Virus record (IMG/VR): IMGVR_UViG_3300045988_067909
Direction: 5' to 3' (one strand)
Source of the DNA: a virus
DNA length: 64,000 bases
The notes under the pieces are model-generated. The model had not been told where the DNA came from. It made no database searches and saw only the letters and a program-made list of their open reading frames with translations. The translations under genes were made by a program, and so were the position numbers. Position 1 is the first letter of the stretch; each line of letters begins with the position of its first letter. Below, piece after piece: positions 19,416-62,814 of the stretch.

Positions 19416-19687
19416 GAATAGTAGCTCCTCCGTTGAAAAAATAAGAGATTTTACTAATATGTTTCCCTAGGCTATTTATATCGAGTCAGGGTTATATGCC
19501 CCTATGCCACAGTGTGACATAAAGGCATATAGGAATTGGTAGTATATATTTATTATAGGAGAAATTTTAAACGCATTAAACTAAACAAGATTTATTAGTC
19601 GCCGCATTTACTAATAAGTTATGATTGTAAAAGTTTAATTTAACTATATTGTCAACTATATATTATAGAAATGGAGGTGTTTAAATA

Positions 19688-31915: not shown

Positions 31916-31951
31916 AGTTATATATTATAAGTATGAAAGGAGGCGTATACT

Positions 31952-39537: not shown

Positions 39538-40473
39538 ATGATCATATATTATGCAGATACACAGGATGGGCGGTTAGCTGCCCATCTAATACTTCAGAAC
39601 CCGGAGAAAGTTCTGATTGATGAAGAAAAAAGATTAGACCCTGAATATTGTCTATTAAATGACATTAATGATTCTAAGGATATTAAGCTTCTACCATATA
39701 TATTTAAACCTAATGCTACTGTATTAGATAGAGTCAATGAAGACGAAGCTATTATATGTGTCGGTATTGGGTTTAATATAAATAATGCGGTATCTTTACA
39801 CAGATTCAATGCAGTGGTGAATAAAGCTAGACGAGTGGTATTTATAGATTACTTACCAAAGTCTAAGCTTTTAATAGAGAAGTATAAAGATAACGATAAG
39901 ATAGACTTTCATTACTACGAGTACGAGTGTCTATCTAGTATTGTCTGGTATATCATTATGGGTAAGAATGAAAGCATTCCGCTTATCAATGGTATTAACC
40001 AATACACCCATAAGCCTATTCCTGATATTAAGGCTATCTATCAAAAGATGTATATAGCGACTTTATTTAGTGATCCTCAAGACGTTGTATGGGATAATCT
40101 CATGAACGAAACAGAAGAGGAAGCTAAGTATCGATATAAGACTATTGCATATGCATATGATTATATGAAACAACGATTACAGATTGATATTGACCGTGGA
40201 GTATACTATTCTTATATTGGAGATCTTAAAGTAAGATGTATGAGCGTTCAAGATGCTGAATATATTCCATCGGTCTTATATCATAAATCTTTAGTAACCA
40301 TAAACTGGATATATGATGGTGATAGCTATCTATATAAAGTTTATGCTGATTTTGATGATTTTAATTGTGCGGAATTTGCAGCTAAGTTTAACGGTACTGG
40401 AACGAAACACTATGGTGTGTTCAGATCGGATGACTTATTGCTATATCCACATAATAGATCTCGGAGGAACTGA
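39538..40473 (+). CDS. Hypothetical protein (311 aa) lying between the two topoisomerase subunit genes
   Basis: ORF; no motifs. Confidence 0.35.
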   Translation: MIIYYADTQDGRLAAHLILQNPEKVLIDEEKRLDPEYCLLNDINDSKDIKLLPYIFKPNATVLDRVNEDEAIICVGIGFNINNAVSLHRFNAVVNKARRVVFIDYLPKSKLLIEKYKDNDKIDFHYYEYECLSSIVWYIIMGKNESIPLINGINQYTHKPIPDIKAIYQKMYIATLFSDPQDVVWDNLMNETEEEAKYRYKTIAYAYDYMKQRLQIDIDRGVYYSYIGDLKVRCMSVQDAEYIPSVLYHKSLVTINWIYDGDSYLYKVYADFDDFNCAEFAAKFNGTGTKHYGVFRSDDLLLYPHNRSRRN

Positions 40474-40916
40474 TGGCGAGAAAATTCCACTTAGTGTCCA
40501 CAGCACCTGAGGGCACATTACTACCAAAACGTTCAACTAAGCATTCTGCTGGTTATGACTTCTTCTCTCCTATAGATGCAGAAATCATGCCAGGTGCAAC
40601 TCTTAATATCCGTACAGATATTAAAGTTGAAATGAATGAAGATGAAGTACTATTCATTGCTCCACGTAGCAGTTATGGATACAAATATCAAATGGCGTTA
40701 ACAAATACTTTAGGTATCATCGATGCAGATTTCTATAACAATGAGACCAATGAAGGTAATATCAGTATCAAAATTAAAAACAATGGTACTGAACCTATGT
40801 ATTTGGTCAAAGATGAAGCATTCGCTCAAGGTATCTTTGTTAAGTATTTGACTACAGATGATGATGATGTAACTGAAGTACGTACTGGTGGTATTGGTAG
40901 CACTACTAAGAATTAA
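40473..40916 (+). CDS. dut: dUTP pyrophosphatase (trimeric dUTPase family)
   Basis: Motifs AGYDFFSP, IAPRSSYGYKY and GIIDADF, plus the C-terminal motif V RTGGIGST. Length 147 aa. Confidence 0.65.
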   Translation: MARKFHLVSTAPEGTLLPKRSTKHSAGYDFFSPIDAEIMPGATLNIRTDIKVEMNEDEVLFIAPRSSYGYKYQMALTNTLGIIDADFYNNETNEGNISIKIKNNGTEPMYLVKDEAFAQGIFVKYLTTDDDDVTEVRTGGIGSTTKN

Positions 40917-47023: not shown

Positions 47024-48211
47024 CTATAGATTAGAGAAGTGAATCATTAAAGCGAAATACATTAGAACGGAACGTTGGTAACTGGCTTTTGTAGCAGCAC
47101 GGTTCTTACGTACATGATAACGTCTAGAGCCATTCATTAACCATCGTTCTAAGATTTCCTTAGATCTGATTACTTCTTTGACTTTACTATTAGGTCTAGG
47201 TGCTGTAGTAAATCTTACAAACTCAACACGTTTAACGTCTTTCTTATCTGTGCTTTGGAAGAATAGATATACTAGAAGACTAATGAACTCTTTAACTTCA
47301 GTAAGAGACTTAGTATCATTCTTTAACACCCATTCTATGATAGCTTTGATTTCATCAGTAGATACATTAACGTCAGCTGCCATCTTACAGTAAGAATAGT
47401 TTACACCCATAGTACTAATAGCTTGAACTGTCTTATCAATTACACGTTCAGCCATAAGACTATCAGTATCAGCCAATCTATAGTTATCTTCACTATAGTC
47501 ATCACTAGCATAGTTAAGATATTCATTACGATTTTCAAATGCTTCATAATACAACGTAGCGATATTCTTCATGAATGATTTGATACGTGTATGCAATTGC
47601 TGTACGATATCTTTGATATCTTCATCATCAAAGTCTTCAAACTTATCTTGATATGTCTCAGCCCATGTTGTAGCAATAGAACGTATTGCACCAAATACAT
47701 TACCTTTGACTTTAAGATCGTATTTAGCAGACATCTTATTATTGACTACATAATCCATTACGTGTTTATACTCAATAGGCTGTACAACTTGGAATGAGCC
47801 ATAATGAATAGATGGATAGAAAGACCCAGAGAATGCTATATTAACTAATGATAGGTCTAATTCTTTATAGTATTTCTTTCTATTCATTAAGAAGTATCTA
47901 ACTATACATAGCATAGCTATAGTAGTCTCATCTTTAGCAGCAGCCGGGTTAAAAGACGGAATACTAAAATAGAAAGTATTCCGTAATTCTCTTTGGATGA
48001 CAGAACGTTGAATGCCTAGCATTCTGAAGAATTCATCTCTATCGTTATCAGTAAAGTAAATACGTCTATATGGTGCAATAGCATATAAGTCTTCAGCTCT
48101 AGCTGCAATGAATTTACTGATATATTGTTTATATTGGGAAACCCTTCTAGAGATAGCTTGCTCTATTAGAGGGTATATCTTCTTAAGTATAACTTCGTTA
48201 TCTTGCTTCAT
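47024..48211 (-). CDS. Hypothetical protein (about 396 aa; the track ORF extends to 48280)
   Basis: AGGAGG-ATA-ATGATG on the minus strand favours a start at 48211 or 48214. No motifs. Confidence 0.35.
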   Translation of the reverse strand: MKQDNEVILKKIYPLIEQAISRRVSQYKQYISKFIAARAEDLYAIAPYRRIYFTDNDRDEFFRMLGIQRSVIQRELRNTFYFSIPSFNPAAAKDETTIAMLCIVRYFLMNRKKYYKELDLSLVNIAFSGSFYPSIHYGSFQVVQPIEYKHVMDYVVNNKMSAKYDLKVKGNVFGAIRSIATTWAETYQDKFEDFDDEDIKDIVQQLHTRIKSFMKNIATLYYEAFENRNEYLNYASDDYSEDNYRLADTDSLMAERVIDKTVQAISTMGVNYSYCKMAADVNVSTDEIKAIIEWVLKNDTKSLTEVKEFISLLVYLFFQSTDKKDVKRVEFVRFTTAPRPNSKVKEVIRSKEILERWLMNGSRRYHVRKNRAATKASYQRSVLMYFALMIHFSNL

Positions 48212-48279
48212 CATTATCCTCCTTGATTTTATTAAGATGTTTCCGTGAAACACTTTAATAAGCCAAGGAGGAATAAGCA

Positions 48280-49521
48280 ATGTTTATTTATAACGAACAG
48301 TATTTTGGTAAGACACCAAGTCTTATCAAACTAGAATCTATTATCGGAGATATCCGTAAACAAAAGTACAAGAATGATACAGTAGTCGAATCTAAAGAAC
48401 TAGCTAAAGTCATGAAGAATCAATTTGGTTTTGCTAATACTAATTTCTTAGTAGACTTCACTACAGCGAAGAATGCTTATACATTAGTATTCAGAGATAA
48501 ACTAAATGGTATGGGTAAACCTATCTTTAAGAATGGTACATACCAATTTAACCCAAAAGACGGTTATGATCTAAATGTATATTTCTCTTATGGTTTATTA
48601 TGTGATACTAGCTTTACTAATGAAGAGCTAGTAGCCATCTTATTGCATGAGATTGGTCATCATTTCAGTGCTAAAGCTGCTATGTATGAATACAATCTCC
48701 CTAGTATCAAGAACCTAGTTCGTGGTATGACTGATATGAATAAAGCTATCTATAATTTAACTAATGGTGCTAAAGAAGATATCCGTAATATTAGTGATGC
48801 TAATATAATGGCTGGTATCCAGCAAGCATTTAATGGTTTAGATTGTAGATCCGCTTTGGCTTATATTAATAACGGTGTAGTCTTAGTTAAAGATGCTATC
48901 TTAAATGGTAATATCTCAGATGCATTCAAATTCCTAACTGGTGATAAAACTGTAGTCAATAAAGTAATGAATACTAAGTTTGACCAATCAGTAAAGAATC
49001 TTGTTTCTGAATATGATTCCGAAGAAGAGAAGTCTGATGCATTTGCCACTATCTATGGTTATGGTCCTGCATTGACTACAGCATTGACTAAGTTAGAGTC
49101 TAATAAATTAGATACTAGACAAAGCACTACAGAATCTAATGTATTAGAATGGATTCTTAAGTTCTACGTTACATTTGGTATTATAGGTGTATTTGAATTC
49201 TTTATTGATTCAATGGCACATATTGATTCAAGTAAACGTACATTAGCAGCATTAGCTGTATTAAACCAAGAACTTAAGACAGCTAATCTTACACCTAAAC
49301 AACGTAAACGTATCCAGCAAGATATCATTGATATTACTAAAGATTATGAATCATATCTTGAAGCAAAACAGGCTTTATTTAAAAAGACTGGTTACGTTAA
49401 ACTAGCGTTCGTATATAATAAGATCTTATTCTTATACCATACTAAGTTTAATAGTGATAGAAACTTAGAATCCTATCAGCAACTATTGAACTTGTATAGA
49501 ATGGCTTCATCTAGATCCTAA
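48280..49521 (+). CDS. HExxH zinc-metallopeptidase-like protein (413 aa)
   Basis: LVAILLHEIGHHFS zincin motif at about aa 120. Strong SD CAAGGAGGA. Family not determinable by eye. Confidence 0.4.
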   Translation: MFIYNEQYFGKTPSLIKLESIIGDIRKQKYKNDTVVESKELAKVMKNQFGFANTNFLVDFTTAKNAYTLVFRDKLNGMGKPIFKNGTYQFNPKDGYDLNVYFSYGLLCDTSFTNEELVAILLHEIGHHFSAKAAMYEYNLPSIKNLVRGMTDMNKAIYNLTNGAKEDIRNISDANIMAGIQQAFNGLDCRSALAYINNGVVLVKDAILNGNISDAFKFLTGDKTVVNKVMNTKFDQSVKNLVSEYDSEEEKSDAFATIYGYGPALTTALTKLESNKLDTRQSTTESNVLEWILKFYVTFGIIGVFEFFIDSMAHIDSSKRTLAALAVLNQELKTANLTPKQRKRIQQDIIDITKDYESYLEAKQALFKKTGYVKLAFVYNKILFLYHTKFNSDRNLESYQQLLNLYRMASSRS

Positions 49522-49585
49522 CATATAAGTAGCTAAGATTTTTTCATTTGACTCCTAAATAACTAAATGTACTTACCTAGTAGAG

Positions 49586-49630
49586 CCCTAGTACGGATAT
49601 AATTTGTACTAGGGTTTTATTTGCCTTTTG
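49586..49630 (+). terminator. Intrinsic terminator
   Basis: ccctagtac-N11-gtactaggg followed by ttttatttgcctttt. Confidence 0.55.
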
Positions 49631-49855
49631 TAAAAAATAAAATCATATAAACAATATAGTGATAGGTAGCACCTCGTATAATCTATAACTTATAAATCTA
49701 CCTATCAAGAGGCTTATATAGTTGATACTTTCAGTATAGTAGGCTATCTCATAACCATTCAATCCCTACTATACTTCCCTTCTAATCAACTATAAGGGTC
49801 AAGCGCTTCTTCAAGAGTTATCGAATTAACTCACTTTAAACACAACAAGAATACT

Positions 49856-49890
49856 CCATATAGGCATTGCCTGTATGGGGTTTTCTTGTG
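49856..49890 (+). terminator. Intrinsic terminator inside an ORF-free region. Its hairpin sequence is nearly identical to the terminator at 53686.
   Basis: ccatatagg-cattg-cctgtatgg followed by ggttttcttgtg. Compare cccatataggcaatgcctatatggg at 53686..53710. Confidence 0.45.
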
Positions 49891-49929
49891 TTACCTATAC
49901 CACACTTATATAAAAAAGGAGGATAATTT

Positions 49930-50439
49930 ATGGAAATTGATGGAATGCCAGAAATTAAATTGAGCAGTGTGTCTGCTAAAAAAGCTGTATCTCCATTACG
50001 TGAAGAACAAGAACCACAGTTAACTGTATTCTTAGGTGGTACCTGTAATGGCTCTGTATGGAGAAATGATTTACTTAGAATGCTAACTGACAAGGTAAAA
50101 GCATTTAACCCTGTAGTGTCAGTATGGGATGAACGTGCTAAGTTCGAAGAGAAGTATCATCGTGACCATGATGATGTAAGACTATATTGTATTACACCAG
50201 CCATGTCAGGAGTATACTCTATTGCTGAAGTAGTAGATGATAGTAATAAGAGACCTGAAAATACCATACTATGCGTATTGTATAGTGACTTTGGTGGTGA
50301 TTTTACTTATACTAATCATCAATTAGCTTCTATGAAAGCCTTAATGGATTTAGTAGAGTCTAATGGTGTAAAAGTATTCGATAGCCTATATGATGTAGCA
50401 GTCTACTTAAATAACAGAGCTGAACATATAGCTAAATAA
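49930..50439 (+). CDS. Nucleoside 2-deoxyribosyltransferase / DNPH1(Rcl)-like Rossmann protein (169 aa)
   Basis: The N-terminal motif TVFLGGTCNGSVWRNDLLRML resembles the YFCGSIRGGR..L block of DNPH1/NDT-fold enzymes. Assignment is tentative. Confidence 0.3.
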   Translation: MEIDGMPEIKLSSVSAKKAVSPLREEQEPQLTVFLGGTCNGSVWRNDLLRMLTDKVKAFNPVVSVWDERAKFEEKYHRDHDDVRLYCITPAMSGVYSIAEVVDDSNKRPENTILCVLYSDFGGDFTYTNHQLASMKALMDLVESNGVKVFDSLYDVAVYLNNRAEHIAK

Positions 50440-50461
50440 TTCATTTATGGAGGAAAAAATT

Positions 50462-50593
50462 ATGGCAGATAATAAATATGGCGTAATCAATGAAGTTGGT
50501 GACTTAGGATTAGGTTTCCAAGAGCTTAATGATAATGATCAAAAAGTGCTTCAAGAACAATTGAAGCAAGAACAAGACAAAGATAAAAAATAG
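50462..50593 (+). CDS. Possible small acidic protein (43 aa), not in the supplied track
   Basis: GGAGGAAAAAATTATG. Translates to MADNKYGVINEVGDLGLGFQELNDNDQKVLQEQLKQEQDKDKK. Its own terminator follows at 50603..50649. Confidence 0.3.
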   Translation: MADNKYGVINEVGDLGLGFQELNDNDQKVLQEQLKQEQDKDKK

Positions 50594-50602
50594 TTGTCTA
50601 AG

Positions 50603-50649
50603 ATATGTAGTAGAGCCTCTTATCGGTTCTACTACATATTTATTTTTTA
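50603..50649 (+). terminator. Intrinsic terminator
   Basis: atatgtagtag-N15-ctactacatat followed by ttatttttt. Confidence 0.5.
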
Positions 50650-50676
50650 CACTCACTGTAACTGTATATTAATCAG

Positions 50677-50688
50677 ACCCAATTGGGT
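50677..50688. promoter_or_regulatory. Perfect 12-bp palindrome upstream of the tubulin gene (candidate operator)
   Basis: ACCCAATTGGGT, 38 nt upstream of ATG 50726. Confidence 0.3.
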
Positions 50689-50725
50689 TAATATAGGTTA
50701 CTTATTTTAATACGAGGTAATTATT

Positions 50726-51991
50726 ATGAAAGCAAAACTTATCGGTATTGGAGCTGCTGGTAATAAAGCAGCTATGCATGCTATTAACCAAGGTGTATTT
50801 GATCGTAAAGATGTTTTACTTTTGAATACAACTCAAAAAGATATGAAAGACGAATTCAACGATATTAATATCGTATTCGGTGATAACCGTGGTGGTTGCG
50901 GTAAAGAACGTGATATGGCTAAAGGATTAGCTATGGAAGCTTTACGTGCAGACCTATTCAAATTAGACTCTTTTCCAGATCCTCAAGATGAAGCTATTAT
51001 CATTGTATCTTCTTCCGAAGGTGGTACTGGTTGCGGTGCTTCTACTATTGTAGCTAAGTACTGTAAACAAGTATTGAAAATGAATGTACACATGTTCGTA
51101 TTCACTGGTTTCGAACAAGATGCTCGTGGTATCCAAAACACTGTAGAATACTTCCAAGAATTATCTGATGAATATACTGTACAAGCTATTAGTAATAAGA
51201 AATTCTTAGATGGTATCCGTAGCAAACAAGATGCTGAACGTGCGGCTAACCAAGAATTCACTCAACGTATGGCAGTTCTTCTTGGTCAAGACTTAGTAGA
51301 ATCTGATCAAAATATTGATGACACAGACTTATATAAATTGTCTACTACACCTGGTTTCATGACTATCGAAAAAGCTAAAGTTACTAGCATTAAGAATACA
51401 GAAGACTTGTATAAAGAACTTCGTAAAATGTTAGACTATAGCAAATCTTTGGAATTCAAGCCTACAGCTAAACGTATTGGTGTAATCTTTGGTCTAGTTC
51501 CTGCGGCTCAAAACATGGACTTGAATACTGATGTATTACGTGAACGTCTTGGTGAACCATATGAATTCTTCACTCATATTCAAGATGCTGAACCTGGTAA
51601 AGAGTTCATTGAATTCATTGCTTCTGGTATTAAAATGCCAATTGATGAAGTTAATAAAGCTTACCAAACTTACTTAGAACGCACTTCTAAAGTTGATAAA
51701 TCTAAAGACTCTTTCTTTGATGAAGCTTCTTCTATGACTATCAATAAAGAAGATGGTATGTTTAACTTTGATAAGACTGGTCCACAAAATATCTCCAAAG
51801 CAGATAAAGATGCATTCTTTGCTAGTTCCAAGCCTGTAGTTAAACCACGTGTAACTGTATCTGCTAAAGATGATTTCTTCAATCAAACTACAGAAAAGGT
51901 TACAGTATCTCCTACAGTTGAAGTTCCAGAAGAACCAGTTAAACCTAAACGTGTAATTATCACTAGCAATGGTATTACAAAAGACTATTAA
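50726..51991 (+). CDS. phuZ: Tubulin/FtsZ-family GTPase (phage PhuZ/TubZ-like)
   Basis: Glycine loop LIGIGAAGNKAA and T4/tubulin signature SSEGGTGCGAS. The acidic C-terminal tail carries three DxFF repeats (DSFFDEAS, DAFFASS, DDFFNQT). Confidence 0.7.
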   Translation: MKAKLIGIGAAGNKAAMHAINQGVFDRKDVLLLNTTQKDMKDEFNDINIVFGDNRGGCGKERDMAKGLAMEALRADLFKLDSFPDPQDEAIIIVSSSEGGTGCGASTIVAKYCKQVLKMNVHMFVFTGFEQDARGIQNTVEYFQELSDEYTVQAISNKKFLDGIRSKQDAERAANQEFTQRMAVLLGQDLVESDQNIDDTDLYKLSTTPGFMTIEKAKVTSIKNTEDLYKELRKMLDYSKSLEFKPTAKRIGVIFGLVPAAQNMDLNTDVLRERLGEPYEFFTHIQDAEPGKEFIEFIASGIKMPIDEVNKAYQTYLERTSKVDKSKDSFFDEASSMTINKEDGMFNFDKTGPQNISKADKDAFFASSKPVVKPRVTVSAKDDFFNQTTEKVTVSPTVEVPEEPVKPKRVIITSNGITKDY

Positions 51992-52015
51992 TCCTACCAA
52001 TATACGAGGTGACTT

Positions 52016-52942
52016 ATGAAGGGCATTTATTTTAATAACCTGAAGAATCCTGCATTAGATCCTATTGTAGATACGATGGAATTGAATATGCTATTAGATG
52101 ATCCTTCGGAAGCAGAAAAAGCAGAGATTAGAGATAACTTTGTTAACGAGGTTATGTCTAAAGGATATAATGAAGATGAACTTAAACTATTCATCTTTAA
52201 TAACTTCCATGAGTTCGTTAAATACTCTTATGAAGTTCCTGAAGTAGCTAAGCTTTGGGAAGAACGACCTATGGTTCCTAAGCTAATTAAACAACTGCTT
52301 ACTAAATATACTCCAGGGTTTAGTTTTAATAAGCTAGACCGCATCTATATAAATGGAGTAATCTATAACCATAACGTAGTACATCAGAATGATGAAGTAC
52401 CTGGTATGGTTACAGAAATACTTAATGATTTAGGTATGACAATCAATAAAGACGTATGTGAAATCTTAGACAGCATCTATTATCTTCCTAGACAGTTCTA
52501 TACTATGGCTGTAATAGCAAGATTCTCAGATGTACGTGAAGAAATCAATATTAGACGTATCTTGTTCTTATTGATGATTACCTATGAATATAACACTACC
52601 ACTGTAGATGATATCCGCATCATTCTTGAAGCGTTATTCTATGGTGAAATGACTCCATTGTTTATCATTAATATGCTAGATACTCATAGAAGTGAACAAT
52701 GGTACAACTATAGATATAGAGCGGCTGAAGAAGATACTACATTTGCTCTATATAGAATAGTAAATGCTATGCCTAAACACATTATCAAAGATACTTTGCT
52801 AAAATATAGTGAAGTCTGTGTAGCTAGACAACTCAAACTAGATGATGTGAAATGGACATTGGTAAACTTACCATTAGATGACTATAGAGAATTAGCTATT
52901 ATAGCTGATACTCTAAAGAACGATGGTTATTATTTACCATAA
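52016..52942 (+). CDS. Hypothetical protein (308 aa) immediately downstream of the tubulin gene
   Basis: ATACGAGGTGA initiation context. No motifs. Confidence 0.35.
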   Translation: MKGIYFNNLKNPALDPIVDTMELNMLLDDPSEAEKAEIRDNFVNEVMSKGYNEDELKLFIFNNFHEFVKYSYEVPEVAKLWEERPMVPKLIKQLLTKYTPGFSFNKLDRIYINGVIYNHNVVHQNDEVPGMVTEILNDLGMTINKDVCEILDSIYYLPRQFYTMAVIARFSDVREEINIRRILFLLMITYEYNTTTVDDIRIILEALFYGEMTPLFIINMLDTHRSEQWYNYRYRAAEEDTTFALYRIVNAMPKHIIKDTLLKYSEVCVARQLKLDDVKWTLVNLPLDDYRELAIIADTLKNDGYYLP

Positions 52943-52944
52943 CA

Positions 52945-52995
52945 ACACAAAAAATAATACATGGGTAGAGAGGATGCCCTACCCATGTATATCTT
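52945..52995. terminator. Bidirectional hairpin at the start of the duplicated cassette
   Basis: catgggtag-N10-ctacccatg. The minus-strand side is followed by a T-run (tattattttttgtg). Confidence 0.45.
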
Positions 52996-52998
52996 TAT

Positions 52999-53181
52999 CT
53001 ATACACCATATCTATGATATAGTCGCATGCGCCATAGTGGCACCATATGCTCTATTGGTGTATCTTTATCTGGTAAATGTTCACCAGACTCAGTACCAAC
53101 AGGTATAGATTCAGATGCTAGTCTTCTAGCTTCGAGCTCAGGAATCTGAGCGCAAAGCGAGAGGAGAAACTCTCTGCTCAT
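52999..53181 (-). CDS. Small protein (60 aa), copy 1 of a tandemly duplicated gene
   Basis: SD AAGGAGGTGAA. MSREFLLSLCAQIPELEARRLASESIPVGTESGEHLPDKDTPIEHMVPLWRMRLYHRYGV. It is 49/60 identical to copy 2, with mostly conservative substitutions. Confidence 0.45.
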   Translation of the reverse strand: MSREFLLSLCAQIPELEARRLASESIPVGTESGEHLPDKDTPIEHMVPLWRMRLYHRYGV

Positions 53182-53307
53182 AGGGGATTCACCTCCTTAT
53201 GACAAGTAGACATAAGTCTACAAGTGTATGGGTAAATTTAGATACGGCTATTGGTACTAGCTGTATCTACCATACACATTTATAGTATACAATCGTAAAA
53301 CAGTTTA

Positions 53308-53353
53308 CATATAAAAAATAATACATGGGTAAGTGGGGATACACCTACCCATG
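53308..53353 (-). terminator. Minus-strand terminator of small-ORF copy 2 (unit boundary)
   Basis: catgggta-N14-tacccatg. On the minus strand it is followed by tattattttttat. Confidence 0.45.
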
Positions 53354-53364
53354 ATTATCTTTAT

Positions 53365-53547
53365 CTATACCCCATATTTATGGTATAGTCGCATGCGCCA
53401 TAGTGGCACCATGTGAACTATTGGGGTATCTTTGTCTGGCATCCGTTCACCAGATACAGTACCTACTGGTATGGTTTCGGATGCCAGTCTTCTCGCTTCG
53501 AGCTCAGGGTTCTGAGCACAAAGAGAAAGAAGGACATCTCTTGTCAT
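53365..53547 (-). CDS. Small protein (60 aa), copy 2
   Basis: SD AAGGAGGTGAA. MTRDVLLSLCAQNPELEARRLASETIPVGTVSGERMPDKDTPIVHMVPLWRMRLYHKYGV. Confidence 0.45.
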   Translation of the reverse strand: MTRDVLLSLCAQNPELEARRLASETIPVGTVSGERMPDKDTPIVHMVPLWRMRLYHKYGV

Positions 53548-53685
53548 AGGGATTCACCTCCTTATGACTTATGGGTTATAGTCCCATAAGTGTATGGTTA
53601 TATTTAGATACAGCTACTACTAATAGCTGTATCTACCATACACGTTTATAGTATACAATCGTAAAACAGTTTACATACAGAAACT

Positions 53686-53722
53686 CCCATATAGGCAATG
53701 CCTATATGGGACTTCTTTTTAA
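53686..53722 (+). terminator. Intrinsic terminator (a repeat of the hairpin at 49856)
   Basis: cccatataggca-atg-cctatatggg followed by acttcttttt. Confidence 0.5.
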
Positions 53723-53725
53723 TTC

Positions 53726-53756
53726 TTACATACTAGGAAACAAGAAAGTATATAAT
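53726..53756 (+). promoter_or_regulatory. Sigma-A/sigma-70-like promoter candidate upstream of the recombinase gene
   Basis: TTACAT-N17-TATATA(AT) lies 30 nt before the SD TAAGGAGGA. It contains GAAACAAGAAAGTATATAATA, which resembles the 27-nt motif. Confidence 0.3.
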
Positions 53757-53785
53757 ACTTTGAAATTATGTAAGGAGGAAGCACT

Positions 53786-55012
53786 ATGAGTGAAGATTTA
53801 ATTTCGATAGTATCTGATAAGATGGGTACATCTAGTAGTACAAGCATTTATGATGTATTATACCCAACAGGGTTCTTTAATGTAGACTATTTGAATGGTT
53901 ATAAGATTAATGGTTATCATAAAGACGGTACTAAATTCTCTTATGATGCATTTGGTATTGTAGATGGTTCTTTTAACTTAGTTGTCGGACGTACTGGTTC
54001 TGGTAAAACAACAGCAGCTATCCAATGGGGTGCTAATATCATTCGTCGTTTTGAAAAGGCAAGAATGTTTATCGCATCTATCGAGGGTGGTATTACTATT
54101 AACCGTCTTGAAGCATTAACTGGTTGGTTTGGGGATGATTTATTTAAACGTGTAAGTATTCGTAATAGTGGTCTTAATGTAGAGAGCATCTATAAAGAAA
54201 TCTTATCTATCTATGATGCTAAGATGGCTAATAAAGAAGAATACTTATATGACACAGGTCATGTAGATTCTCGTGGATTGCCTATCATTAAGATGGTACC
54301 AACTGTATATGTGATTGACTCTGTAGCTAATATGGTTCCAGAACGTGTAGCTAACCGTGGTGAAATGGGTGGTCAAATGGATGCAACTGCTATTGCTAAA
54401 GCTAATACACAGTTCATCAAATTGACTATGCAATTACTTAAGACTGCTAATATTATTGTATTGGCAATCAACCACATCAATAAACGTGTAGAGACTGGTT
54501 TCATGCCAACTAAGAATGATATCCCATATCTTAAACAAGATGAAACATTACCTGGTGGTAAAGCTATTAACTATGATGCTAATAATATCTTCAAATTGGA
54601 TGATAAGAAGATTAAAGAAGAATCTTTTGGTTTCAATGGTAAAGAAATCGTAGTTCAAATGATTAAGTCTCGTACTAATAAAGCCAATATGACTACACCA
54701 TTATTGCTTAACTTTGATATTGGGTTTGACCCATACTTCTCTTTATTATTACTTCTTAAAGATACTGGTCGTGTTAAAGCCAAAGGGGCTTATATGCAAC
54801 TAGATGAGCATGCTGATATGAAGTTTACCAATAAGAAGTTTACTGAAATCCTATTTGATAATAAAGACTTCCAAAAAGTATTCTTTGAAGCGGCTAAAGA
54901 AGAATGTCGTAAGTTGTTAACTCCAACTAAGACTTTAACTGAGTCTGTAGATAATACATTGTCTAATGATGTAATGGCATTATTTAGAGCAATGGACCAA
55001 GTAGAAGAGTAA
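53786..55012 (+). CDS. RecA/UvsX-family recombinase (divergent)
   Basis: Walker A VGRTGSGKTT; the later blocks VIDSVANMVPE...GEMGGQ and VLAINHINKRV parallel the RecA core. Length 408 aa. Confidence 0.5.
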   Translation: MSEDLISIVSDKMGTSSSTSIYDVLYPTGFFNVDYLNGYKINGYHKDGTKFSYDAFGIVDGSFNLVVGRTGSGKTTAAIQWGANIIRRFEKARMFIASIEGGITINRLEALTGWFGDDLFKRVSIRNSGLNVESIYKEILSIYDAKMANKEEYLYDTGHVDSRGLPIIKMVPTVYVIDSVANMVPERVANRGEMGGQMDATAIAKANTQFIKLTMQLLKTANIIVLAINHINKRVETGFMPTKNDIPYLKQDETLPGGKAINYDANNIFKLDDKKIKEESFGFNGKEIVVQMIKSRTNKANMTTPLLLNFDIGFDPYFSLLLLLKDTGRVKAKGAYMQLDEHADMKFTNKKFTEILFDNKDFQKVFFEAAKEECRKLLTPTKTLTESVDNTLSNDVMALFRAMDQVEE

Positions 55013-55032
55013 TTGTATATTATAGTTTTGAG

Positions 55033-55057
55033 CCAGAAGATTCCAGTAATCTTCTGG
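55033..55057 (+). terminator. Terminator-like hairpin
   Basis: ccagaagat-tccagta-atcttctgg. The U-tract is weak. Confidence 0.3.
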
Positions 55058-55099
55058 TGCAATTCTATGCTTGTTACATAATGGAAAGGGGTAAGTACA

Positions 55100-57328
55100 T
55101 TGGCAACTAGCGTAAATATTGTAGACGAAATTAAGAAATATGAAAGGAGATTGAAATTCCCAGAAGAGGCATTAGGTAAAGAATTGGCCGAACCTATTCC
55201 AACAGCAGTATCTGGGTCACGTAAATTATTGTATTCAACACAGGCCGATCAAGTTATGTCTTTGAACACACCTGAAGTGCCGTTCTTACAGACAGGCTAT
55301 GAGAATGAGTTTGGACATAAGTCCACATCATTCAAACAATATCATGGTGATGATTTAGTTATACTAGATAAAGTCGATAAGTTTAACTGGATCCCTAATC
55401 ACCATTATTTTCTACTCACATACAATGCTAATAAGAATATCATTGATGCTGTAGAACGATGCTCATACTTACATATTACAGAAAGCTATGGGTATGACCA
55501 AAATACTAAGTACTTAGACTCCCTAGGTATTGGTAGTAAAATCCGTACAGGTGACATCTATCTCAAATCCAAAGGGTTTGATGAGTATAATAACCGTATG
55601 GATGGTGTAAATCTATTAGTTACTTATGCCGCTATCTCAGATACTACAGAAGATGCTATTGTATTATCTGAAAGCTGTGCTAAGAGATTAAGTTCTCCAT
55701 TGTATCATAAAGTCCAAATCATGGTCAATGAGAATGATATCATGCTCAATCTATATGGTAATGAAACCATTTATAAAGTTATGCCTGATATCGGAGAAGA
55801 AGTATCCAATAGTCTTCTATTGGCTACAAGACGTGAGAATAAACAAGAATCCTTGTTCTCTCAAGTATATTCCAGACTTATGGATATTAATATGAATGAC
55901 AATAAGATTACTGCTACAGGTACTGTAGTTGATGTCAATGTCATTACTAATAATCCAGATATGATGGAATCATCCAACTATACTACACAGCTTAGAACGT
56001 ATTGGAAAGAATCTATTCGATTCTCCCAAGAGCTTGTAGATAAAGTGGATATGTACAAAGATCGTTATCCTAATGCTAAGATTGGATACGAACTACAAGT
56101 ACTTTATTCTAGAGCAAAGAGCTTATTAGATGGAGAGAAGTTCTCTCTTGATGGTAAGAAAGCTTTCTCTAATATCTTCCTTGAAGTTGTGGTACGTGAA
56201 AACAATGAACTACATATCGGGGATAAGATTACTAACCGTTATGGTGGTAAAGGTGTTATTAGCCGTATACTTCCAGACGAAGAAATGTTTGAGACTATTG
56301 ATGGACGTAGAGTAGAAATGATCTATAACCAAGGTACTTCTACTAACCGTCTTAATCCAGCTCAGATATTTGAAACAGAAATAAATGCAGCATCTGCCAA
56401 ACTTCTAAGATACTTACCTATGGAAACACCATATGAGGTAAATCAATCATTAGAACGTATTGCTACATTTATGAGTATCTTCACTCTAATGCAAGCTAAT
56501 GCATTCAGGGAATATGTCTATGCCTTGAATGATGATAGCAAGTTAGATTTACTTAAGTCTATGAAGAACGATGGATGTATAATTCTATCAGTATCTCCAA
56601 TACAAGAAAACATTGACCTAGATAAACTAGTAGCTATGTATGAGTTATTCCCTGAATGTGAGATTGATTATGCTTATTGTCAATTACTTGATAGTAATGG
56701 TAATCCTCGTAAGGTAAGAACTCAACGTCCTTTACTAGTGGGTCATCAATACATTGTAAGACTTAAACAGTATGCAGAAGATAAGTTCTCTGTAACTTCA
56801 TTGTCTGCTACAAACTCTAGAAATGAAAATAGTCGTAATAAGAACCCAGGTGAGGGTGGACATAGATTTCCTAATACTCCAGTACGTTGGGGTGTAATGG
56901 AAACATCTGCTATGCAACACATTGGTTCTTGGTTCAATGCTATTATGCTTCTAGTATATAGTACGTCTCCACATGCAAGACGTAAAGCTAAGAATCTATT
57001 AACAGATTCACCATTCAATATCGACGTTAAAGTTGATAGTGAATCTAAATCTAGATCTGTAGAAGTACTTAATGTATATCTACGGACTATAGGCTTAAGG
57101 ATTAGATTTGATAAATATAAGAAAGTGATTAAGAGTATATTTGCTCTTCCATCTTCTATCCCACATATGTTTATCGAAGTTCCTGATGCTGATCGTAAAC
57201 CTACAATTGAAATGGTGGATGATAAGAAAGGGTTTAAGATTCCACAAATCATCTTCAAAGGTGATGACCCTAAACCAAATATGTTTATCAACCCACCTAA
57301 AGAGGAAGAAGAACCTCAGAAGGAGTAA
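55100..57328 (+). CDS. Multisubunit RNA polymerase beta subunit, C-terminal half (split rpoB; apparent TTG start)
   Basis: NFED-like EDAIVLSE and GDKITNRYGGKGVISRILP (E. coli GDKMAGRHGNKGVISKI). QYIVRLKQYAEDKFSVTS (compare YmLKLnHLVdDKmHARS). GGHRF...RWGVMETSAM (compare GGQRFGEMEVWAL). Confidence 0.7.
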   Translation: MATSVNIVDEIKKYERRLKFPEEALGKELAEPIPTAVSGSRKLLYSTQADQVMSLNTPEVPFLQTGYENEFGHKSTSFKQYHGDDLVILDKVDKFNWIPNHHYFLLTYNANKNIIDAVERCSYLHITESYGYDQNTKYLDSLGIGSKIRTGDIYLKSKGFDEYNNRMDGVNLLVTYAAISDTTEDAIVLSESCAKRLSSPLYHKVQIMVNENDIMLNLYGNETIYKVMPDIGEEVSNSLLLATRRENKQESLFSQVYSRLMDINMNDNKITATGTVVDVNVITNNPDMMESSNYTTQLRTYWKESIRFSQELVDKVDMYKDRYPNAKIGYELQVLYSRAKSLLDGEKFSLDGKKAFSNIFLEVVVRENNELHIGDKITNRYGGKGVISRILPDEEMFETIDGRRVEMIYNQGTSTNRLNPAQIFETEINAASAKLLRYLPMETPYEVNQSLERIATFMSIFTLMQANAFREYVYALNDDSKLDLLKSMKNDGCIILSVSPIQENIDLDKLVAMYELFPECEIDYAYCQLLDSNGNPRKVRTQRPLLVGHQYIVRLKQYAEDKFSVTSLSATNSRNENSRNKNPGEGGHRFPNTPVRWGVMETSAMQHIGSWFNAIMLLVYSTSPHARRKAKNLLTDSPFNIDVKVDSESKSRSVEVLNVYLRTIGLRIRFDKYKKVIKSIFALPSSIPHMFIEVPDADRKPTIEMVDDKKGFKIPQIIFKGDDPKPNMFINPPKEEEEPQKE

Positions 57329-59620: not shown

Positions 59621-59681
59621 TGAAACAAATCTATAAGTATATATTATAAATGAGATAGTGGTTTGCTATCTCGTTTCTTTT
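59621..59681 (+). promoter_or_regulatory. Conserved 27-nt element plus hairpin and T-run, copy 2
   Basis: TGAAACAAATCTATAAGTATATATTAT, then gagatag-tggtttg-ctatctc followed by gtttctttt. The hairpin ctagggttaaa-N8-tttaaccctag (59590..59620) spans the ligase stop codon and precedes it. Confidence 0.35.
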
Positions 59682-60401: not shown

Positions 60402-61067
60402 ATGAAGCGTGCAATATGTGAAGGGAAACTACTTAGTCTGTATGATATAAATACGGACTATAATGATTACTTTATGAATGATACATCATTCATGGGGTAT
60501 ATTGATGAGGGAACTGGTATTATTTATCCTAGCACAACTCAAACTTACATAAGTAAGAATCCAGGTAAAGCTGGATTCTATAAGCATGGTCCATTCTTAA
60601 AGTTTATCGAACCATCTGATGAAGAGAGAGATAACTTTACTTTTGATAAATTGGAACATGTGGATTGGGATAATACATCTAGTATTAGTGACGTAGTAGC
60701 TAAGTCTAAAGAGGCATTCTCTTTGGACAATAGATTACTTAGTAACGTCACACCAGACAATATCTTTGCACCACCAATTCATTCTGATGACTCTCCAGAA
60801 ATGGTTGGTATGAAAACAGCTATTGCAAAGAAGAAGATTGACTTAGACTTATATGGATATCGTTTTGGTGAGAACTTCAATAATGATAAACGTATATTTG
60901 ATAAGCCATCTATGACTTTAAATAAGTTAGTGACTATCTGTGATAAGACAGATATAGACGCTTATCTCATTCTCAAAGACAAGGATGGGGATATCCCTAA
61001 CCCTATGGGAGAAGAGATAGTAGTAAAACTAACTAATGGAACGGAAGAGGAGGGTAACGATGAATAA
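60402..61067 (+). CDS. Hypothetical protein (221 aa)
   Basis: ORF; no motifs. Confidence 0.35.
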   Translation: MKRAICEGKLLSLYDINTDYNDYFMNDTSFMGYIDEGTGIIYPSTTQTYISKNPGKAGFYKHGPFLKFIEPSDEERDNFTFDKLEHVDWDNTSSISDVVAKSKEAFSLDNRLLSNVTPDNIFAPPIHSDDSPEMVGMKTAIAKKKIDLDLYGYRFGENFNNDKRIFDKPSMTLNKLVTICDKTDIDAYLILKDKDGDIPNPMGEEIVVKLTNGTEEEGNDE

Positions 61068-62814
61068 TAGTTGGCAAAGCAAGTTCATTGCCGATTATAA
61101 TGATAAGAATCGTCCTAAGTTTAATGACGTATTCTTCTCTAAATCCGATGATGCTATTATCGAAGACCTAAAAGCTATGCTTATATCTTGTCAACGTGAT
61201 AAGTATTTCACAGTCAAGATTCTAGGATTCGATACTATAGAAGACTATGATGAAGTAAACAGACTTCTCATAGAAAACAATGATAATATCACTGTACCAA
61301 TCAAAGATAGCTATCTTAAGATACTTAAGGTAACCTATTATATTGAGGTCAATGGATATAGTGATACATTTGATGTGTATATAGCAGTGCCTAGAGTATT
61401 CGAAGGTGCTTATATCATCTTAAATGGTAATACGTACTTCCCATCTTTCCAATTAGTAGATGGGAGTACTTACAATAATACATTAGCAAAATCATCTAAA
61501 GTACAAAAGATTACATTGAAGACTGTCTTTGGTGCTTTACGTATGATTCGTAATTTCTATGACTATCAGACCACTGATGGCACTGTACTTAACGGTACAG
61601 TATATTCTATCATGTCTAATGGTGCTTCTTATAAGGGTAAGAAGAATGCAGTAGATAGAAAAGTTCCAGCATTCAAATACTTATTTGCTAAGTATGGTTT
61701 ATACGAAGCATTAAGTCTATTTGGATTCGATAATACTATCTTCATTTCTAAAGAACCTTTTGAAGAAGAAGAGAATTACTATACGTTCAAATGTCAAGCC
61801 ACTACTAGCCGTATAGGTTATGTAAAAGTAGCTAAGATATTATTCGATAATGACCGTGTATATCAATCAGCAGTTATAACTATCTTAGATAATCTTCGTA
61901 GTTTGAAGACTGGATATACAGCAGAGTCATTATTCAATAAAGACTACTGGGTTATTTCTCTTGGTGCACATTTCGTTAAGAATAATATGGAATATGAGAA
62001 AGGCTTATCCGCTCTATATTCTCTAGAAGATCAATACGACATAGTCACCAAGAAGAATATCAGATTACCATATGAATATAAATCTAATATTTATATGATA
62101 CTAAGATGGATGATGGCAGAGTTCTCTAATATTCGACTTAAAGATAACACTGATGTTACCAATAAGCGTATTAGATGGTCTGAATGGATTGCGTCTCTAT
62201 ATGTAATGAAACTAAATACAGGTATGTATCGTTTAAATGATATAGCTAGACGTCTTAAATCCGATACTATAATCAAACGTTTTAGACAATGTATCGATAT
62301 CAAACCTATGTACTTAATATCTGAGTTACAAAAGAGTGGTATCAAAGGTTTCCGTAATATGGTTAATGAACGTGATGCTATATTACAATTAAAGTGGACT
62401 TTCAAAGGACCTACAGGTCCTGGTGAAACATCCAATAAGAATCTCGAGGGTAGACTTAAACGTATTTCTCCATCGCATTTAGGCATCTTGGACTTTAATA
62501 CCTCTTCACCAACTGAACCTGGTACTAGTGGTATTATGTGTCCTTTGAATCAAAGTGTATATGATGGATATACGTTTACTAGTGATGGTGAACCTAATAG
62601 CTGGGATGCATCTTTCAATGAACTTAAACAAAGTTATAGGGATGCTATTGGTGTTAAGTCCGCATTTGAATTAGCAGATGATATCGGAGCTGTTCTTGAG
62701 GGAGCAGATGACGGTAAGAATCGTGCTATCTATGAAATGTATCAAATGGGTAAATCCATAAGCCTAGCTAAACAGTCAAACTATCAACCTGGAGATCTTA
62801 TAGTCGAAGATTAA
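61060..62814 (+). CDS. Multisubunit RNA polymerase beta subunit, N-terminal half (split rpoB)
   Basis: LKRISPSHLGILDF...EPGTSGIMCP aligns with the rpoB block RRISALGPGGL...GRICPIETPEGPNIGL (Rif-cluster/fork region) near the C-terminus of this ORF. Start ATG 61060 after GGAGGG. The 584 and 742 aa of the two halves add up to about one full beta subunit. Confidence 0.55.
   Translation: MNNSWQSKFIADYNDKNRPKFNDVFFSKSDDAIIEDLKAMLISCQRDKYFTVKILGFDTIEDYDEVNRLLIENNDNITVPIKDSYLKILKVTYYIEVNGYSDTFDVYIAVPRVFEGAYIILNGNTYFPSFQLVDGSTYNNTLAKSSKVQKITLKTVFGALRMIRNFYDYQTTDGTVLNGTVYSIMSNGASYKGKKNAVDRKVPAFKYLFAKYGLYEALSLFGFDNTIFISKEPFEEEENYYTFKCQATTSRIGYVKVAKILFDNDRVYQSAVITILDNLRSLKTGYTAESLFNKDYWVISLGAHFVKNNMEYEKGLSALYSLEDQYDIVTKKNIRLPYEYKSNIYMILRWMMAEFSNIRLKDNTDVTNKRIRWSEWIASLYVMKLNTGMYRLNDIARRLKSDTIIKRFRQCIDIKPMYLISELQKSGIKGFRNMVNERDAILQLKWTFKGPTGPGETSNKNLEGRLKRISPSHLGILDFNTSSPTEPGTSGIMCPLNQSVYDGYTFTSDGEPNSWDASFNELKQSYRDAIGVKSAFELADDIGAVLEGADDGKNRAIYEMYQMGKSISLAKQSNYQPGDLIVED

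Follow-up and report, generated by a model that had tools for sequence, protein, structure and literature searches.

A distinct TubZ-related tubulin family with its own companion genes in an uncultured jumbo phage

Background

Phage tubulins are currently described by two models, PhuZ spindles serving a chimallin nucleus and TubZRC systems segregating plasmid-prophages. The 64,000-nt stretch of viral DNA deposited as IMG/VR record IMGVR_UViG_3300045988_067909 (referred to as the window; all coordinates are counted from its first letter) encodes a tubulin-like protein of 421 amino acids (aa; 50726–51991, plus strand), which raises the question of which of these architectures, if either, it represents. 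An earlier note made from the sequence alone had left the choice between PhuZ and TubZ open. Neither was found to fit as defined: comparison with PhuZ by hhalign yielded a probability of 2.7 %, and the accompanying parts of TubZRC were not found. The protein belongs to a distinct TubZ-related tubulin family with its own companions, a protein of about 300 aa encoded directly downstream and a small acidic protein encoded upstream.

Results and discussion

Fold and catalytic motifs of the tubulin

The 421-aa open reading frame (ORF) encodes a genuine tubulin/FtsZ-fold GTPase by fold and motifs, as the earlier note had proposed. Pfam family PF00091 (Tubulin) matched the protein with 40.1 bits (E=6.4e-10), above its gathering cut-off of 33 bits. 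The AlphaFold2 (AF2) model, computed with 78 homologues as input, reached a mean predicted local distance difference test (pLDDT) value of 85 and a predicted template modelling (pTM) score of 0.77, with pLDDT >90 over the tubulin core (residues 1–330). Foldseek comparison of the model with the PDB retrieved tubulin-superfamily proteins only, headed by CetZ1/CetZ2 (E=2e-20; template modelling (TM) score 0.76–0.78) and including TubZ of Clostridium phage c-st (3v3t; E=8e-18, TM 0.79), FtsZ (~1e-16), Bacillus thuringiensis TubZ (1e-16) and, at rank 26, PhuZ of phage Goslar (E=1e-15). From Pfam, AF2, Foldseek and the invariant alignment columns, the core was delimited to residues 1–321 (50726–51688, plus strand), comprising the GTPase domain, the T7 loop and the C-terminal domain.

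Both the T1 glycine loop (GIGAAGNKA, residues 7–15) and the G-box signature [SAG]GGTG[SAC]G (EGGTGCG, residues 98–104) are present, the two motifs from which the protein had originally been recognized. The T7 loop reads N196-x-D198-x-x-D201 (NxDxxD), and a GCGKER loop is formed by residues 57–62. Nine residues (G9, G12, G99, G100, G102, G104, N196, D198 and D201) are invariant in 78/78 family sequences. In the tubulin superfamily, the T7 loop completes the active site of the adjacent subunit. From the invariant nucleotide-binding glycines together with this loop, knowledge of the superfamily predicts GTP hydrolysis coupled to polymerization and, with it, the formation of dynamic filaments.

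Family size and distribution

A word-indexed search detected 1,190 metagenomic homologues of the tubulin, on contigs of up to 230–310 kb. Among 50,697 deposited phage genomes, tblastn and megablast with the locus retrieved nothing at E≤1e-5; relaxation of tblastn to E≤10 added only the TubZ proteins of c-st and D-1873 (E=3), and accordingly none of the deposited cultured relatives of the AR9/PBS1/Staphylococcus type carries the present tubulin by tblastn. A tblastn search of 72,556 plasmids gave two weak matches only. Across 185,579 species-representative genomes, the tubulin was found solely on 10 contigs of metagenome-assembled genomes (MAGs) and in 0 isolate genomes.

The UniProt/BFVD entry A0A8S5UFG9, "Cell division protein [Myoviridae sp. 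ctcyQ27]", is a member of the same family (Foldseek E=8e-47, 38 % identity, TM 0.86), its name stemming from automatic annotation of a metagenomic virus. Some data sources likewise label family members "cell division GTPase FtsZ". A literature search retrieved no paper describing the present tubulin family.

Affiliation with characterized tubulins

The tubulin was placed by profile-profile, profile-sequence and fold rankings. Sequence comparison identifies TubZ of Clostridium phage c-st as the closest characterized relative, based on an hhalign match of 96 % probability (E=2e-9, 244 columns, ~24 % identity) and on two short motifs common to both proteins, the GCGKER loop and the tail tip. The loop reads GGCGKERDMAK in the family and EGCGKERKKAV in c-st TubZ; the same position is occupied by IGMGKDRKAA in phiKZ PhuZ and by GHGVGADNELG in the CetZ1 alignment. 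B. thuringiensis TubZ is related to the family by fold only. Beyond the common tubulin/FtsZ fold and the loop, the family resembles c-st TubZ in being phage-encoded and in possessing a long flexible tail with a tip motif. It differs in that the c-st tail is acidic and bears a single tip, whereas the family tail is charge-neutral with three or four motif copies, and in having a dedicated all-alpha partner of ~300 aa and a microprotein. Moreover, c-st is a plasmid-prophage; here, in contrast, the gene is carried by a jumbo phage that encodes multisubunit RNA polymerases and has a gene block of the lytic type.

Identity with PhuZ was rejected on sequence grounds. Against phiKZ PhuZ, hhalign aligned 95 columns at the above-mentioned 2.7 % probability, and a search of all PDB sequences with the family profile retrieved neither PhuZ nor B. 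thuringiensis TubZ at E≤1. PHROG 4733 ("tubulin PhuZ") was the best PHROG match, a weak one (1e-6) covering only the GTPase domain (residues 3–227). The family shares with the PhuZ proteins of phiKZ (gp39), 201phi2-1 (gp59) and Goslar the location in a jumbo phage beside split multisubunit RNA polymerases, a related G-x-G-K-[DE]-R loop, the weak PHROG match and a probable role in intracellular positioning. PhuZ differs by its length (~315–330 aa, against 421 aa here) and by its tail.

Identity with FtsZ was likewise rejected. The sole NCBIfam match, TIGR00065 (ftsZ), attained 27.7 bits, missing the equivalog cut-off of 295.2 bits by a factor of ten. The family has the G-box and the NxDxxD T7 loop in common with FtsZ and CetZ, which also provide the best profile match (FtsZ) and the best fold match (CetZ). 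In contrast, the T3 loop differs, the C-terminal peptide of FtsZ does not occur in the family, and the present protein is viral and has a dedicated partner.

C-terminal tail

The disordered tail encompasses residues 322–421 (51689–51991, plus strand), as delineated by AF2 pLDDT and alignment. The earlier note had described it as acidic; this does not apply, since 16 D/E residues are balanced by 16 K/R residues (net charge 0, pI 6.5). Four [DE]x[FM]F motifs were recognized, DSFF at residue 328, DGMF at 343, DAFF at 362 and DDFF at 382. The AF2 model of the tail is of low confidence (pLDDT 38–58) and displays short helices at residues 329–336, 341–346 and 358–368, which fall on the first three motifs (m1, m2 and m3, respectively). 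These helical D-x-F-F motifs may loosely resemble the C-terminal peptide of FtsZ, a point in favour of the FtsZ mimic considered below.

Conservation of the tail was scored in the 78-sequence family alignment. Motif m1 (KDSFF, 51704–51718, plus strand) follows the pattern V-[ND]-K-x-K-D-x-F-[FL], with F330 present in 78/78 and D328 in 75/78 sequences. Motif m2 (EDGMF, 51749–51763, plus strand) follows E-D-x-M-F-[ND] (F346 in 73/78), and m3 (KDAFF, 51806–51820, plus strand) follows K-x-x-F-[FL] (F364 in 77/78). The fourth motif, m4 (KDDFF, residues 381–385; 51866–51880, plus strand), is lineage-specific. Thus, of the three D-x-F-F motifs originally noticed, the first two proved to be conserved in homologues, together with the MF motif between them, whereas the third did not. 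The protein ends in ...KDY, with Y421 encoded at 51986–51988. The last residue is Y in 34, F in 17, L in 12 and V in 6 sequences (69/78 in total), usually preceded by D, E or N; by alignment, an aromatic or aliphatic C-terminal tip is conserved across the family.

Motif m3 bears a clear sequence likeness to the tip of c-st TubZ. The latter protein ends in ...EIDINDFFSKYM, its tip reading INDFFSKYM, and m3 appears in family members as, e.g., KNDFFSKFG or KNDFFSKYG (pattern K-x-[DSN]-F-F-x-[SK]-[FY]). The c-st TubZ tail is unstructured; its last eight, uncharged residues (the tip) modulate how the upper subunit is contacted and also interact with TubY and the TubRC segrosome (PMC5322520, Fuentes-Perez et al.). 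Accordingly, m3 may correspond to the ancestral TubZ tip, while m1 and m2 may represent extra copies or variants of a similar helical docking motif; read as such added docking motifs, they would render the tail multivalent. The tail of PhuZ is short and acidic and inserts into the adjoining subunit, and that of phiKZ PhuZ (...DVDDQATSSGLVFD) is unrelated to the family tail, which with its ~100 aa is three times as long and stands nearer to the c-st TubZ tip than to the PhuZ tail.

The 308-aa candidate partner protein

The gene for the 308-aa protein (52016–52942, plus strand) directly follows the tubulin gene, as had been stated in the earlier note, at 24 nt after its stop codon; the terminator scan detected no terminator in this gap. 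Of 88 tubulin-bearing loci examined for a downstream gene, 2 ended too early, and all but two of the 86 scorable loci contain an ORF of 284–308 aa after the tubulin stop. Most gaps measure 14–30 nt; in a few loci the distance extends to as much as 197 nt. By jackhmmer, all these downstream ORFs constitute one family, though identity to the window protein falls to 16–26 %. Its extent was exposed only by a full scan of 1.84 billion representatives with a hidden Markov model (HMM), which yielded 154 partner clusters (50 % identity), nearly all of 270–340 aa; a word-indexed search with the partner alone had found only itself and an alignment query 15 proteins. Three distant members (P0202, P0280 and P0253) are encoded directly 3' of a tubulin gene in 3/3 cases. 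This conserved position lends substance to the suggestion that the 308-aa protein is a partner: it is a strong candidate for an adaptor or regulator of the tubulin.

With a pI of 4.85 the protein is acidic, and its AF2 model, though poor, predicts an all-alpha structure. The family may be characterized as fast-evolving and, on the basis of this model, as probably all-alpha. No relative was found in Pfam, PHROG, NCBIfam, the PDB sequences or Foldseek, and tblastn against the deposited phages retrieved nothing at E≤1. Foldseek returned nothing below E=0.3, and the 14-3-3/ARM-like helical matches at E≥0.3 were dismissed as not meaningful. A PDB profile search and a Pfam scan of 74 members produced noise only, the latter with no helix-turn-helix (HTH) or other Pfam domain. 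A relation to TubY or TubR, which the earlier note had advised to check, did not emerge: hhalign of the partner-family profile against c-st TubY, a protein with a MerR-type HTH and a coiled coil, gave 0.2 % probability, and no HTH was recognized by Pfam in the 74 members.

Two groups of relatives have no adjoining partner gene. In the P0084 group, m2 is lost and m3 is kept; in a group from Acidaminococcales/Phascolarctobacterium MAGs, m1 is degraded and the microprotein is gone as well, while m3 is again kept. The pattern is suggestive, yet the presence of tail motifs does not track that of the partner consistently.

The acidic microprotein

A 43-aa protein of pI 4.4 is encoded at 50462–50593 (plus strand); use of an alternative start at 50447 would extend it to 48 aa. 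The small ORF, including its acidic character and its own terminator, had been noticed before, and it turned out to be a real gene: jackhmmer detected a homologue upstream of the tubulin gene in 95/104 loci. Its core is GVINEVGDLGLGF in the window, and the family pattern is [IV]xE[QVI]GD[LMF]G[LC]G. A strong terminator-like hairpin of 17 pairs followed by a T-run (50601–50651, plus strand; terminator scan and inverted-repeat listing) is located directly 3' and, resembling an intrinsic terminator, probably ends the microprotein transcript. The microprotein is linked to the tubulin by neighbourhood only, and in most clades a hydrolase gene intervenes between the two.

Proposed function

The explanation towards which we lean, with modest confidence, is that of a cytomotive tubulin filament whose multivalent tail recruits a co-transcribed adaptor, one of its two family-specific companions. 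The core (residues 1–321), which retains the parts for GTP binding and hydrolysis, would assemble into dynamic head-to-tail filaments in the infected cell. The tail would act as a multivalent docking strip, one motif stabilizing or tuning the filament and others recruiting cargo adaptors. The prime adaptor candidate would be the all-alpha protein of ~300 aa, whose gene would share its mRNA with the tubulin gene, and the 43-aa microprotein would be a possible small regulator. The likeliest role of such a system would be the positioning or moving of phage DNA, replication factories or capsids during infection, making it PhuZ-like in purpose and TubZ-like in ancestry, with accessory proteins of its own. 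Filament formation, binding of the partner by the tail, the nature of the cargo and the timing of expression are parts of this proposal that we infer, whereas the fold, the catalytic motifs, membership in the family, conservation of the motifs, synteny and the lack of TubR, TubY and tubC are shown by the sequence analysis.

Several observations weigh against this explanation. Profile-to-sequence scoring of the family profile against all PDB sequences ranks the GTPase domain nearer to FtsZ (2e-12) than to c-st TubZ (2e-5), with CetZ at 1.6e-7, and the proposed TubZ affinity draws on hhalign and two short common motifs. The two clades without a partner gene keep most tail motifs, and the motifs therefore cannot serve the partner alone; the link between tail and 308-aa protein is itself suggested by sequence. 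For the partner, AF2 gave only a poor model (pLDDT 59), for which no known fold was retrieved. Furthermore, the assignment of a promoter to the operon (see below) proceeds by analogy with AR9, and the search for chimallin covered ~84 kb of the ~268-kb genome.

The carrier phage and the alternative of a divergent PhuZ

Sequence relationships place the carrier as an abundant uncultured jumbo phage of ~268 kb related to AR9, PBS1 and the Staphylococcus jumbo phages. Genes identical to those of the window occur on contigs of ~260–268 kb. The window encodes helicases of the DnaB and Dda types, both subunits of topoisomerase II, a dUTPase, UvsX, an NAD-dependent ligase and pieces of split multisubunit RNA polymerases. 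The RNA polymerase beta subunit is nearest (~30 % identity) to those of Staphylococcus phages SA1, PALS_2 and S6 and Bacillus phages AR9 and PBS1, followed by Listeria phage LPJP1 and Yersinia phage phiR1-37; Chimalliviridae reach 21–24 %. For a 584-aa protein (61060–62814), matches were confined to phages AR9, PBS1 and phiR1-37 and to those of Staphylococcus and Listeria; the annotation of its homologues in cultured phages varies between "polymerase", "RNA polymerase beta" and "beta-prime". The exact 584-aa protein is indexed in 872 assembly-collection blocks, 345 of them with contigs ≥0.2 Mb, which shows the phage to be very common among public metagenomes. The sample numbers of the IMG/VR copies are what we take to be Human Microbiome Project-style identifiers.

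Against this background, it could be supposed that the protein is a divergent PhuZ, that a chimallin shell is encoded elsewhere in the 268-kb genome, and that a phage nucleus is centred and rotated by the filaments, which would also bring capsids to it. Split multisubunit RNA polymerases are indeed found in nucleus-forming phages, a phiKZ gp28-like vertex protein is encoded by the phage, and PHROG 4733 as well as the related G-x-G-K-D-R loop of phiKZ PhuZ point in the same direction. A survey (PMC12625630) reports chimallin-plus-PhuZ phages of 200–324 kb that are enriched in human oral samples. On the other hand, PhuZ was remote by hhalign, absent from the PDB profile matches and only at rank 26 by fold, and the tail is three times as long as that of PhuZ and not acidic. 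The best or only matches of the RNA polymerase subunits are with phages AR9, PBS1 and phiR1-37 and with those of Staphylococcus and Listeria, and phages of the AR9/PBS1/PALS_2/phiR1-37 type are reported as the set with "multisubunit RNAP but no chimallin" (PMC10299810). Chimallin, for which the earlier note had advised to look as a sign of a phage nucleus, was not detected by phmmer with the phiKZ protein in the window plus 10 kb on each side (84 kb), a weak test that used a single query sequence; nor were chimallin-like PHROG or Pfam matches obtained among the larger window ORFs scanned. Nucleus formation by the carrier phage is thus unlikely, and a divergent PhuZ must be regarded as improbable.

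Two side observations concern the biology of the carrier. Firstly, DNA of AR9 and PBS1 contains uracil (PMC5312081). The dUTPase gene of the window (40473–40916; PHROG 135, 3e-38) suggests that the carrier may use thymine DNA despite its AR9-like transcription machinery. Secondly, a phage gene for a 905-aa protein (L096:24846-25835), located ~9–10 kb beyond the 5' end of the window, combines YadA head, stalk and anchor with an SLH domain. Adhesins of diderm Firmicutes (Negativicutes such as Veillonella) typically show such a combination, which hints at a diderm Firmicute host. A 97 %-identical contig was binned with an uncultured Solobacterium MAG, and remoter relatives with Phascolarctobacterium and Acidaminococcales MAGs.

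Genome segregation and interference with host FtsZ as further alternatives

A similarly low probability is assigned to the possibility that the tubulin is a type III (TubZ) segregation motor for an episomal phage genome in a pseudolysogenic or carrier state, in which the 308-aa protein would replace TubR/TubY as link to the DNA. This would agree with the closest characterized relative, c-st TubZ, being the partition motor of a plasmid-prophage and with the occurrence in both proteins of the tail-tip motif that in c-st binds TubRC and TubY, and pseudolysogeny has been discussed for jumbo phages with tubulin homologues (PMC7824862). Yet the remaining components of such a system were not recovered. 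No small winged-helix gene of the TubR kind adjoins the tubulin gene, the upstream ORFs coding for the 43-aa microprotein and a deoxyribosyltransferase-like protein; in relatives, the corresponding slot is occupied by a peptidoglycan hydrolase gene. No short iterons that could represent tubC were found within 48000–55200, where the duplication of a 366-nt cassette (see below) is the sole repeat. The partner is unrelated to TubY, is acidic, and no DNA-binding domain was detected in it. Moreover, the tubulin gene is embedded in a lytic-type replication/transcription block, and its restriction to MAGs, with no isolate genome among the carriers, speaks against stable inheritance as a plasmid-prophage.

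Still less probable is an FtsZ mimic, which would co-assemble or compete with host FtsZ to block or redirect division while its tail competes for FtsZ-binding proteins. Although FtsZ GTPase domains are the best profile-to-sequence matches, TIGR00065 is the sole NCBIfam match and some sources label members as FtsZ, the NCBIfam score remains far below its cut-off, identity to FtsZ structures amounts to ~20 % (Foldseek) and the GCGKER loop is of the TubZ/PhuZ type rather than the FtsZ type. In addition, the conserved phage-specific partner argues for an autonomous system.

Upstream spacer and putative promoter

The spacer upstream of the tubulin gene was aligned from 12 near-identical strains. 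The stem of the terminator and the AT-rich element GTAACTGTATATTAATC (50658–50674, plus strand) are invariant in all 12 strains, while adjoining bases vary. The element resembles the early-promoter consensus of AR9, AAATATATATTAT-N6-G(+1) (PMC5312081). Exact copies of TATATATTAT are present at 19657–19666, 31919–31928 and 59638–59647 (also at 55014 and 50663), all of them intergenic and just upstream of plus-strand genes; they match the core of this consensus of the AR9 virion RNA polymerase. By analogy with AR9, and considering its invariance, the AT-rich element may be a putative promoter of the virion RNA polymerase type for the tubulin operon, and the phage probably uses an AR9-like early promoter. 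A scan for sigma-70 promoters returned sites no more numerous than in shuffled sequence.

Between this element and the tubulin gene lies the 12-bp palindrome ACCCAATTGGGT (50677–50688, plus strand), 37 nt 5' of the ATG. The perfect dyad described in the earlier note is thus present in the window; its frequency is at the level of chance (33 perfect 12-bp palindromes in the window, against 28 ± 5.5 in shuffles), and it is perfect in only some of the near-identical strains. The palindrome is the most variable stretch of the spacer, which is otherwise ~92 % identical across the strains (variants GCCCAATATGGGC, GCCTAATATGGGC and GCCTATTGTGGGC). For a 5-bp stem at this site, 95 % of cells pair across the 12 strains, a value reached by 14/500 shuffles in a small sample of closely related strains. 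One pair is compensatory (A-U/G-C), and four C-to-U changes retain G.U pairing. Because of the G.U-retaining changes, an RNA stem is preserved where the DNA palindrome is destroyed, which is weak evidence that the tubulin mRNA carries a small stem-loop at its 5' end or close to it. If the analogy with the AR9 promoter is valid, transcription would start at about the palindrome and thereby generate a 5'-terminal mRNA hairpin. In most other clades the palindrome is absent, and only the terminator hairpin is found at the same position. That the palindrome serves as a protein-binding operator or centromere controlling or anchoring the tubulin system is very improbable, since a perfect dyad close to the ATG and the partial symmetry retained in related strains by the compensatory outer pair are set against its chance frequency, its variability, the merely G.U-compatible pairing of several strains, its absence from most other clades and its occurrence as a single copy rather than an iteron array; it is not a conserved part of the tubulin system and no credible centromere or operator.

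Gene neighbourhood

The tubulin gene sits within a replication/transcription block, with genes for UvsX, the RNA polymerase beta subunit and NAD-dependent ligase as neighbours, and behind its own promoter-like element. The 5' neighbour of the microprotein gene in the window is a nucleoside 2-deoxyribosyltransferase-like gene (49930–50439). Most other clades contain a peptidoglycan hydrolase gene (Glucosaminidase or SLT) between the microprotein and tubulin genes; comparison of 50439–50726 with loci L001, L003, L005, L093 and L094 revealed that the hydrolase gene is gone from this slot in the present phage.

The interval from the partner gene to uvsX contains a tandem duplication of a 366-nt cassette (units 52949–53314 and 53315–53680; 84 % identity). 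Each unit comprises a minus-strand ORF of 60 aa (52999–53181 and 53365–53547, respectively) followed by a minus-strand terminator. The two ORFs differ at 32 positions, and because 23 of these are at codon position 3, the ORFs appear to be protein-coding. Copy number ranges from ~1 to 3 among near-identical strains, and a further partial copy is located outside the window (L096:16115-16600). The cassette is without Rfam match, and Rfam and tRNA scans of the window remained empty. A near-same terminator-like hairpin of 27–31 nt, CCATATAGGCA(A/T)TGCCT(G/A)TATGGG, was found at 49853–49881 and at 53685–53711. These two similar hairpins flank a 3.8-kb block that contains the deoxyribosyltransferase-like gene, the microprotein, tubulin and partner genes, and the cassette.

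Conclusions

It is tentatively suggested, as a possibility held with less than even confidence, that the locus represents a third phage-tubulin architecture beside PhuZ with chimallin and TubZRC, in which a TubZ-derived tubulin, its tip multiplied into a multivalent strip, would be combined with a dedicated, fast-evolving all-alpha adaptor of ~300 aa and a microprotein regulator of ~45 aa in abundant, chimallin-less, human-associated jumbo phages with multisubunit RNA polymerases. If true, the organization of infection by a cytoskeleton would extend beyond nucleus-forming phages. The locus points to a large third family, without cultured representative, in a jumbo-phage lineage not known for a nucleus and carried by a phage seen in hundreds of metagenome assemblies. 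Handles are offered by the three conserved tail motifs, one of which matches the c-st TubZ tip, by the adaptor candidate and by the microprotein. The family could thereby show how tubulin tails diversify for the recruitment of cargo, and whether AR9-like jumbo phages organize the infected cell by means of a cytoskeleton.

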